From a candidate division CPR2 bacterium GW2011_GWC2_39_35 (GTDB lineage Bacteria > Patescibacteriota > CPR2), in the NCBI GenBank assembly GCA_000995065.1, contig LBWX01000003.1:22304-86303 (forward strand): DNA of 64,000 bases. The letters are read 5' to 3'. The notes beneath the pieces were generated by a model. The model made no database searches. It was given only the letters and a program-made list of their open reading frames with translations, and had not been told where the DNA came from. Shown in pieces: positions 47,709 to 48,018 of this stretch (its first letter is position 1; each line of letters starts with the position of its first letter). The translations under genes and the position numbers were made by a program.

Positions 47709-47792
47709 TAGTCTCCACCAATTTTATTTTTCACCTCGAAAATCCAGGTTTAAATTATAAAGCTTTTGTCAAGGTTTTTCAAGGATTTTTAT

Positions 47793-47939
47793 CTGAACCA
47801 CCCTCACTTTTTTGTCATCCCCGTGAAAACTTAGGATCCAGAAGGCTTGGGGGCATAGTGAGCTTCCTGGATTCCCGCCTGCTCGGGAATGACAACTAGA
47901 GTTATTTTTCTTGTTTTTTAAAAAGTGAGGGTGGTTCAG
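47793..47939. mobile_element. MITE-like palindromic element: perfect 20-bp terminal inverted repeats flanked by 7-bp direct repeats TTTTTAT
   Basis: CTGAACCACCCTCACTTTTT (47793-47812) vs AAAAAGTGAGGGTGGTTCAG (47920-47939); inner IRs TTGTCATCCCCG/CGGGAATGACAA and GGATCCAGAAG/CTTCCTGGATTCC; TTTTTAT at 47786-47792 and 47942-47948; the interior is GC-rich. Confidence 0.45.
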
Positions 47940-48018
47940 GGTTTTTATAATTTTATTGGAAAGAGAAAAGAGGCTCTGATACATTTAAAATGATCTCGGC
48001 CTCCCAAGTGCTGTGCTG

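Follow-up and report, generated by a model that had tools for sequence, protein, structure and literature searches.

What is the long hairpin with perfect ends that stands directly upstream of uvrA in a candidate-division CPR2 bacterium, and how did it come to be there? We analysed 64,000 nucleotides of CPR2 bacterium GW2011_GWC2_39_35 (assembly GCA_000995065.1, contig LBWX01000003.1, positions 22,304 to 86,303 of the forward strand; hereafter the window), an organism known from aquifer metagenomes (species metagenome-assembled genome GCA_003500505.1). An earlier note on this DNA had pointed out a 147-bp unit resembling a miniature inverted-repeat transposable element (MITE) and had suggested that it could also act as a terminator or attenuator. 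This unit, here element A, is probably a small non-autonomous mobile element in decay, a structural MITE whose terminal inverted repeats (arms) enclose a convergent pair of CGTC-1 repetitive extragenic palindromic (REP) sequences. Its insertion took place in the lineage of a single CPR2 species, downstream of a riboswitch-controlled operon of orphan genes and upstream of the uvrA promoter. Element A belongs with the known repeat families, as a variant of them, and is neither a new kind of element nor a regulator of uvrA.

Structure of an armed hairpin upstream of uvrA

The 20-nt arms of element A are complementary at 20 of 20 positions, a match with no comparable counterpart in 100 dinucleotide shuffles (coordinates of all features are collected in Table 1). 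Two further inverted repeats, TTGTCATCCCCG/CGGGAATGACAA (92%) and ATCCAGAAGGCT/AGCTTCCTGGAT (83%), are nested inside and complete the three-tier hairpin described in the earlier note. Folded as RNA, the element forms one long hairpin with a minimum free energy of −70.6 kcal/mol on the transcribed minus strand (z = −10.2); the plus-strand RNA reaches z = −6.4 and the single-stranded DNA (ssDNA) z = −6.8, and a GC-corrected sliding fold ranks element A first among all 170-nt hairpins of the window. The interior is GC-rich, with at least 60% GC at 47834-47893 in a window of about 39% GC. At 147 bp, non-coding and with perfect 20-bp arms, element A falls within the structural limits of MITEs (70-300 bp, 15-30-bp terminal inverted repeats, non-coding).

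The heptamer TTTTTAT is present on both sides of the element, at 47786-47792 and 47942-47948, where the earlier note had likened it to a target-site duplication. These flanks are better read as a 9-nt direct repeat that touches both arms, in the order GGATTTTTAT, element, GGTTTTTAT, with one indel. Chance would produce such an abutting repeat at 0.05% of positions and, with AT-rich sequence on both sides, at 0.2%. Seven independent assemblies of the species carry element A without a difference, and so does an eighth contig as far as it is visible before it breaks off within the element; the element is therefore not an assembly artefact.

A convergent pair of CGTC-1 hairpin units

The GC-rich interior is not anonymous sequence but a convergent pair of hairpins of the CGTC-1 REP, dRS3 or NTS type. 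CGTC-1 REPs are defined by a CGTC head (with TGTC and CCTC variants), an 8-bp stem that opens with A-T and T-A pairs, a 4-nt loop and a CCA tail; they correspond to the Neisseria repeat dRS3 and occur as dimers that can form, across a spacer of 20-100 bp, a single large stem-loop (PMC3733652). Neisseria NTS encompasses dRS3 (PMC11893778). Both units of element A start with TGTC and follow, apart from the losses described next, the layout of head, 8-bp stem, 4-nt loop and CCA tail, with the heads pointing outward and the tails facing the 25-nt spacer. In unit 2, 7 of 8 stem positions pair, the innermost being an A-G mismatch, and loop and tail fit CGTC-1; the unit matches the dRS3 pattern ATTCCCN8GGGAAT and agrees with the NTS pattern CGTCATTCCCGCGMAVGCGGGAATCYRG at 26 of 28 positions. 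Unit 1 has lost the 3′ half of its stem, which reads ACTTAGGAT where a related copy in a sister species, described below, has ACGGGGAT.

Both units nevertheless lie outside the strict definitions of the family. NTS are called with at most one mismatch; unit 2 has two and unit 1 gives no match. The broader, degenerate pattern of Ssn-related motifs (SRM), HGTCWYN(0-2)YYVSBRHN(0-5)WNVSBRGN(0-2)RNCYNB, has no match in the window (shuffle mean 0.13). REP families number tens to thousands of copies, and in about 81 kb of this genome (the window plus two extensions of about 9 kb) there is one pair. With unit 2 beyond the NTS limit, the stem of unit 1 lost and no SRM match, element A is a degenerating member of the NTS/SRM family. 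In blastn searches of element A, unit 2 alone matches other phyla, including at least 40 places per N. gonorrhoeae chromosome as well as Photobacterium, Azospirillum, Novosphingobium, Cupriavidus, Legionella and a Microcystis phage; the arms match nothing. Three PLSDB records, NZ_CP119140.1 and NZ_CP119142.1 (N. gonorrhoeae, 2.17 Mb) and NZ_AP026896.1 (Aeromonas caviae, 4.94 Mb), are chromosome-sized; chromosomes have evidently been filed as plasmids in this collection, a caveat for plasmid statistics.

A 71-aa open reading frame (ORF) that runs across the element (window 47769-47984, minus strand; protein P0122, called at loci L002 and L007) was rejected as a spurious translation of it. The ORF contains the peptides HSRAGGNP and FHGDD, typical of translated NTS-type repeats. 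A word-indexed search matched it to itself alone, and an exhaustive phmmer search added two spurious ORFs over tandem doublet arrays; none of these matches is a real protein family, and no armed copies are among them. As those two ORFs lie across tandem arrays of the doublet found in element A, the convergent pair is a recurrent unit.

A related copy of element A is present in the sister species CPR2 GW2011_GWC2_39_10 (loci L009/L013). The locus is unrelated, and a 360-aa ORF there extends with its 3′ end into the copy. The first 38 nt of the copy, comprising the arm and the start of unit 1, are identical to those of element A; both units are intact (TGTC-ATCCCCGT-GAAA-ACGGGGAT-CCAG and CGTC-ATTCCCCT-GTAG-AGGGGAAT-CCAG), the right arm is truncated to 9 nt, and 100 of 150 aligned columns are identical overall. 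The 13.7 kb of L013 hold eight canonical units, including three doublets, and two of the units match NTS exactly (28/28); the SRM pattern has six strict matches there, both units of the sister copy among them. The CPR2 doublets align as one family. At L013 the head-side flank of the units is conserved (…GCACTTTTTT-GTCAT…), and the inner CACTTTTT(T) of the left arm of element A is this same flank. The inner 9 nt of the arm thus belong to an extended unit, and the outer approximately 11 nt alone are arm-specific. Downstream of doublet d1, L013:2396-2470 carries tandem half-units (GGGGATGACGG, GGTGGAATGACAAGG, GGCGGGAATGACGG and GGGGAATTACAA), which are 3′ stem-plus-head fragments without 5′ halves.

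Related lineages lack the element at the uvrA site

Had element A been conserved in place in relatives without flanking repeats, a regulatory hairpin would have been favoured over a mobile element, as the earlier note set out. We reached the orthologous loci through UvrA, as the 90-aa ORF on the other side of the element is an orphan whose product matched only itself among 5.8 billion proteins. Five related lineages with UvrA 81-86% identical lack element A at the orthologous site, so the element is not conserved in place. For four of them the upstream sequence was read: each keeps the promoter TTGAAA-N17-TATAAT, and its DNA upstream of the −35 box is unrelated and contains no element; the fifth (L024/L025) was judged by its layout, which has the same gene order and the same 284-nt gap as L018. 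A 1,548-aa 'UvrA' (P0003) was considered as a strain variant and set aside as a different, double-UvrA protein in an unrelated context.

The whole interval between uvrB and uvrA varies in the same way. In L020, uvrA follows uvrB directly (104 nt); in L016, L018 and L024 a HAD phosphatase gene lies between them; and, in the comparison of window positions 47709-49967 with L016, L018, L020 and L023, only the window has orphan ORFs with a riboswitch. Element A and a sibling, element B, occupy the two extremes of this interval in the window. On these comparisons, lineage-specific insertions have a hotspot between uvrB and uvrA. At L018:3045-3150, a GC-rich palindromic module, a TTCTTCGAGCGAAGTGAAACGAAGTCGAGAAG hairpin, lies downstream of uvrB.

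Armed doublets at other loci and evidence of mobility

The clearest evidence for movement of armed doublets comes from family C, a 122-bp unit found at three loci of the sister species with 117-119 of 122 positions identical (about 97%; 96-98%). Perfect 13-bp arms, GTAACTGCTCACA, enclose a CGTCATTGCGA-type hairpin doublet as cargo. In copy 1, which lies in the sister species' own uvrA-upstream region, a perfect 8-bp duplication, CCTTATGT, abuts both arms; copy 3 is likewise flanked by a perfect 8-bp duplication (ATTTGATT/ATTTGATT), and the flanks of the inverted copy 2 are decayed (ATTCATCA/ATTCTCA). A perfect abutting 8-mer is expected by chance in 0.006% of cases. Near-identity at three loci, together with a perfect duplication of fixed length and complex sequence that is particular to each of two copies, is the signature of transposition, and it marks family C as a true MITE in multiple copies, built like element A. 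Directly after copy 1, L016:3698-3730 carries a GC-rich palindromic module, CCCTCTCCTGCGGGAGAGGGCTAGGGTGAGGGG.

No second copy of the element A arms was found in the window. Element B, by contrast, carries arms (CTGGAACCATGTGCACTTTTTT/AAAAGTGCACGTGGGTCAG) that are identical to those of element A at 17 of 22 positions; the mid-arm differences leave each element's own arm pair complementary. The arm motif that they share, GAACCANNNNCACTTTTT, occurs three times in the window against 0.05 expected. Element B is the second most stable hairpin of the window and has an abutting repeat of its own (ATTTTTTG/ATTTTTTT, 7/8; 0.09% by chance). Its interior (49811-49890) is a TGTCATTGCGAG-type doublet homologous to the cargo of family C, with 64/89 positions identical compared with 51/97 in the control alignment of A with C. 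With arms like those of A and cargo like that of C, element B shows that arms and cargo are mosaic. Two further modules of the window resemble this interior: at 4190-4273 a convergent TGTCATTGCGAG…GCAATC-type doublet that has no outer arms, and at 1540-1585 one unit of that type with an extra inner hairpin. Both fail the published SRM pattern and resemble the repeats that flank an ssn homologue on a Planktothrix plasmid (L031).

A mosaic of this kind, together with doublets that lack arms (window 4190-4273; d1, d2 and d3 of L013), could mean that the arms are halves of a pre-existing palindromic site, such as a hairpin with T-runs, and that only the REP or SRM doublet is mobile. Precedents are known: CGTC-1 dimers of H. 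neapolitanus all lie inside a 41-bp palindrome and GTAG-15 dimers of A. variabilis inside long palindromes (PMC3733652), and the cut made by Neisseria Ssn 5′ of each head would delimit the doublet rather than the arms. The flanks argue otherwise. In A, B and all three copies of C the direct repeats abut the outside of the arms, not the doublet, so that the inserted unit included the arms. Moreover, element A and its sister-species copy, which occupy unrelated loci, are identical over 38 nt that span the arm/unit junction, and no arm-only palindrome, in which the joined arms would read CTGAACCACCCTCACTTTTT-AAAAAGTGAGGGTGGTTCAG, was found in about 130 kb of CPR2 DNA or in exact 20-mer scans. We consider this alternative unlikely.

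We scanned 596 Gb of genomes and a JGI metagenome set for exact 20-mer arms and obtained two sites in all. Arms that have diverged escape a scan of this kind, and the window's own locus came back from neither of the two collections, so the result carries little weight for copy number in this genome. A metagenome match (L015) proved to be a chance 20-mer, and three matches to a 17-mer of the arm in a viral collection were chance matches without an element. No ends of insertion sequences (IS) matching the arms of A or of C were found in annotated plasmids.

The reading of element A as a MITE therefore holds for its class, which is lineage-specific, has related copies and abutting repeats and includes family C. 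Several observations count against it. The copy number of the A type is very low, with one in about 81 kb of its own genome and two sites in the exact scans, and genome, metagenome, viral and plasmid collections, searched by exact match or blastn, yielded neither a parent IS nor a transposase whose ends match. The duplication around A is a T-run, as is that around B, and could reflect a structural or target preference; duplications of complex sequence are seen in family C only, and the arms of C are unrelated to those of A. As to empty sites, the unoccupied uvrA-upstream site would read …CCAATAAAATTATAAAAATCCTTGAAAAACC…, but sequence upstream of the −35 box cannot be aligned between lineages and no exact empty site could be reconstructed; the window likewise has no region orthologous to L013 in which the site of the sister-species copy could be read. 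Finally, to our knowledge, a staggered-cut duplication is not a known product of an ssDNA nuclease such as Ssn.

An Ssn nuclease gene flanked by the same repeats

Small single-domain GIY-YIG proteins (cd10448 type) associated with such repeats were named Ssn and shown to be site-specific ssDNA nucleases by Chenal et al. (2025; PMC11893778), who defined the broader SRM pattern and pointed out the IS-like layout NTS-ssn-NTS. Ssn binds the hairpin motifs as well as cutting them, and in Neisseria the cut falls about 3 nt 5′ of the NTS hairpin. The same layout is present in CPR2. Locus L013 of the sister species encodes a 96-aa stand-alone GIY-YIG protein of the Ssn type (11616-11906; PF01541, E = 3.6e-17), and NTS-type doublets flank the gene on both sides (11500-12100), two of the flanking units being exact matches to Neisseria NTS, a striking identity between phyla. 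In about 81 kb around element A we found no ssn gene, the only GIY-YIG match being the N terminus of UvrC. Elsewhere, the plasmid collection yields Ssn homologues from the taxa that also carry CGTC REPs, and in 6 of 6 other loci fetched the ssn gene is flanked by CGTC-type units, whose subtype varies by host.

Two of the plasmid matches lie at suf genes. On plasmid AZO_p3 of Azospirillum lipoferum 4B (L029, 1385-1893), a doublet-ssn-doublet unit stands between sufB and sufC in the suf operon and is missing in A. ramasamyi, A. oryzae and A. sp. B510, whose flanks are 96-97% identical, which confirms a lineage-specific insertion; no clean duplication is readable there, the sufB-proximal flank having diverged. 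In Shinella sp. PSBB067, an ssn match (H64) falls inside the span of a sufB-sufC match (H91).

The presence of this nuclease in a sister species raises the question of whether element A is kept for a function, as a target of an Ssn encoded elsewhere in the genome that modulates DNA uptake or recombination in the uvr region. Unit 2, with its head, stem, loop and CCA tail and its 26 of 28 positions in common with NTS, would suit such a role; the sister species encodes an Ssn homologue flanked by doublets of the identical type; an NTS/Ssn function has been published for N. meningitidis (PMC11893778); and REPs inside genes are often in replication and repair genes, according to Di Nocera et al. 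(PMC3733652). Set against this, neither unit of A fits the SRM pattern or the one-mismatch NTS limit, the stem of unit 1 is lost, and the roughly 81 kb contain neither ssn nor any other NTS-type unit, compared with 8 units in 13.7 kb at the sister locus. A maintained Ssn target is, in our judgement, quite improbable. Both units fall short of the strict SRM pattern and ssn is absent from about 81 kb, so the present copy of element A is probably immobile and inert.

Gene context and the uvrA promoter

All local genes are on the minus strand, in the order uvrB, an 80-aa ORF, a cyclic di-GMP-II riboswitch with a terminator, the orphan 115-aa and 90-aa ORFs, element A, the uvrA promoter and uvrA. 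The element thus lies, as the earlier note placed it, between the stop of the 90-aa ORF and uvrA, with the promoter of the latter on its other side. The −35 box of uvrA is at 47782 and the −10 box ends at 47754; element A ends 10 nt upstream of the −35 box.

In this position an extremely stable hairpin on the transcribed strand might be primarily a cis-regulatory structure, a terminator, attenuator or insulator for uvrA or for the upstream operon, rather than a relic of mobility; its placement is exact, with the riboswitch-controlled 115-aa/90-aa operon ending on one side and the uvrA promoter on the other. REPs of E. coli act at mRNA 3′ ends, and REP hairpins are known to protect such ends (summarised in PMC3733652). 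An attenuator or terminator, the second role proposed for the element, does not fit the sequence around it. Lying upstream of the −35 box and outside the uvrA leader, the element cannot attenuate transcripts from that promoter; the transcribed strand 3′ of the hairpin reads AUAAAAAUCC, which is not a U-tract, and a terminator scan was negative, so that a canonical terminator role is unlikely. Element A is also missing from the five related lineages, of which the four that were read have the same uvrA promoter, and its units are homologous to a dispersed repeat family. Rfam searches of A and B gave no match at the gathering threshold and only noise at E values up to 10. A primarily regulatory structure is very improbable. 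The mobile element, once in place, may have acquired a secondary, exapted effect on 3′ ends or as an insulator; by analogy with REPs, the likeliest residual role would be a passive one, a 3′-end block or insulator against read-through from the upstream operon, ahead of an intact uvrA promoter.

An integron reading, suggested by orphan ORFs separated by palindromes, was rejected on inspection by eye: the arms misfit the RYYYAAC/GTTRRRY cores of attC sites and no integrase was seen. The riboswitch scores 62 bits (aptamer 49075-49160) and precedes the orphan 115-aa and 90-aa ORFs (48019-48902), with a promoter-like site at 49213-49185 and a terminator-like expression platform at 49033-49013. Neither orphan product has a Pfam or NCBIfam match. 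The sliding fold also returned two stable hairpins with z of about −4 that are unrelated to A and B: one at 27840-27925 (AAAATCTCCGAATGG…CCATTCGGAGATTTT, followed by a T-run) adjoins a tRNA cluster, and one at 56106-56180 (AAGAGGCTC…GAGCCTCTT) has a long inner palindrome.

Table 1. Coordinates of element A, its parts, related armed doublets and neighbouring features (window positions unless a locus is named)
Feature	Position	Strand	Remarks
Element A, 147 bp	47793-47939	no strand	arm, unit 1, spacer, inverted unit 2, AT-rich spacer, arm
Left arm of A (terminal inverted repeat), CTGAACCACCCTCACTTTTT	47793-47812	+	inverted-repeat search
Right arm of A (terminal inverted repeat)	47920-47939	-	exact reverse complement of left arm; inverted-repeat search
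Hairpin unit 1 of A, decayed CGTC-1/NTS-type	47813-47841	+	TGTC-ATCCCCGT-GAAA-ACTTAGGAT-CCAG
Spacer between units of A, 25 nt	47842-47866		tip of long hairpin
Hairpin unit 2 of A	47867-47894	-	TGTC-ATTCCCGA-GCAG-GCGGGAAT-CCAG
AT-rich spacer of A, 25 nt	47895-47919		unit 2 to right arm
Left direct repeat, GGATTTTTAT	47783-47792	+	putative target-site duplication, abuts A
Right direct repeat, GGTTTTTAT	47940-47948	+	putative target-site duplication, abuts A
Element B, sibling armed doublet	49773-49929	no strand	38 nt downstream of uvrB stop, about 2 kb from A
Family C copy 1	L016 3568-3689		uvrA-upstream region of sister species
Family C copy 2	L016 9534-9655		inverted
Family C copy 3	L013 147-268
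uvrA promoter, sigma-70 type	47754-47782	-	TTGAAA-N17-TATAAT; 11/12, best site in region
uvrA	44874-47708	-
Orphan 90-aa ORF	48019-48291	-
uvrB	49968-52043	-

Relation to known repeat systems

Element A shares features with several described systems and is identical to none. One of them is NTS/SRM with Ssn (PMC11893778): the C/TGTC head, the ATTCCCG..CGGGAAT stem, the 4-nt loop and the CCAG tail recur in the units of A, and the NTS-ssn-NTS arrangement recurs around the sister-species ssn gene. The differences are that A fails the SRM and NTS thresholds, that no ssn lies in its roughly 81 kb, and that A packs its pair between 20-bp arms with a duplication; the main text of PMC11893778 describes no such packaging and does not contain the words 'MITE', 'CPR' or 'Patescibacteria'. 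CGTC-1 REPs (PMC3733652) have been reported from five phyla, none of them in the candidate phyla radiation (CPR), in families of tens to thousands compared with one pair here, and their definition includes neither the outer arms nor the duplication of A. Inverted-repeat arms do bracket the CGTC-1 dimers of H. neapolitanus, for which no unoccupied palindromes were found; those arms have another sequence, no duplication was reported and the arms were read as the target (PMC3733652).

The closest architectural analogue is QMITE2 of Coxiella burnetii (Wachter et al. 2018; PMC5896051), a 150-190-bp element in which terminal inverted repeats and variable direct repeats of 7-11 nt surround a REP hairpin. 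Its copies lie mostly in 3′ untranslated or intergenic regions, some of them beside DNA-repair genes, and its shorter versions are bare REPs (PMC5896051). QMITE2 contains a GTAG-type REP in about 50 copies per genome, in contrast to the nearly single-copy CGTC-type pair of A, and the two have no sequence similarity. The REPIN-RAYT system is alike in that inverted REP doublets fold as one hairpin and in that a small nuclease gene is flanked by its own repeats, a REPtron-like analogy drawn in PMC11893778; it differs from the armed CPR2 elements, with their TGTC heads (in A) and duplications, in its GTAG head and HUH/Y1 enzyme.

A proposed route of insertion

REPINs are doublets of GTAG REPs moved by IS200-like Y1 transposases, through an ssDNA mechanism that leaves no target-site duplication. 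For element A, we suggest instead that the arms would be ends recognised by a trans-acting enzyme making staggered target cuts of 8-9 bp. Compared with IS families by duplication length, a DDE-type transposase would fit such a footprint best, in preference to an ssDNA nuclease. The hairpin pair would then be cargo or a secondary insertion, and its spread may be tied to ssn, itself flanked by doublets in the sister genome. By the cut position in Neisseria, the conserved CAC-T6 head flank is a plausible region of Ssn cutting or contact.

A bolder alternative would give Ssn itself the leading part: A, B and C may be gene-less derivatives of an Ssn-encoding IS-like unit, with Ssn, alone or with a host factor, mobilising CGTC REPs even in the minimal genomes of CPR. 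We offer this as a tentative and rather doubtful proposal. If it were true, the 8-9-bp duplications would record the transposition mechanism of NTS/SRM-type repeats. No dedicated transposase was found for CGTC REPs (Di Nocera et al. 2013; PMC3733652), and cutting by Ssn next to the repeats was demonstrated without an insertion footprint being given (PMC11893778).

Significance for CGTC repeats and CPR2 genomes

The hairpin family (2013), its nuclease partner (2025) and REP-containing MITEs with direct repeats (Coxiella) are already known. In the literature consulted we found no description of such hairpin pairs packaged between terminal inverted repeats and target-site duplications, or of their presence together with ssn in CPR. 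For annotation of the window, the 71-aa ORF is spurious and the uvrA promoter is intact. Reduced CPR2 genomes are usually thought to be poor in repetitive DNA; our analysis places both these repeats and ssn in candidate division CPR2. For the spread of CGTC-tagged REPs (dRS3, NTS and SRM), the CPR2 hairpin pairs, NTS-type in A and of the related TGTCATTGCGAG type in B and C, packed in arms with abutting 8-9-bp duplications, give a concrete insertion signature, and their arms, head flank and units provide a small, tractable set of sequences for purified Ssn.

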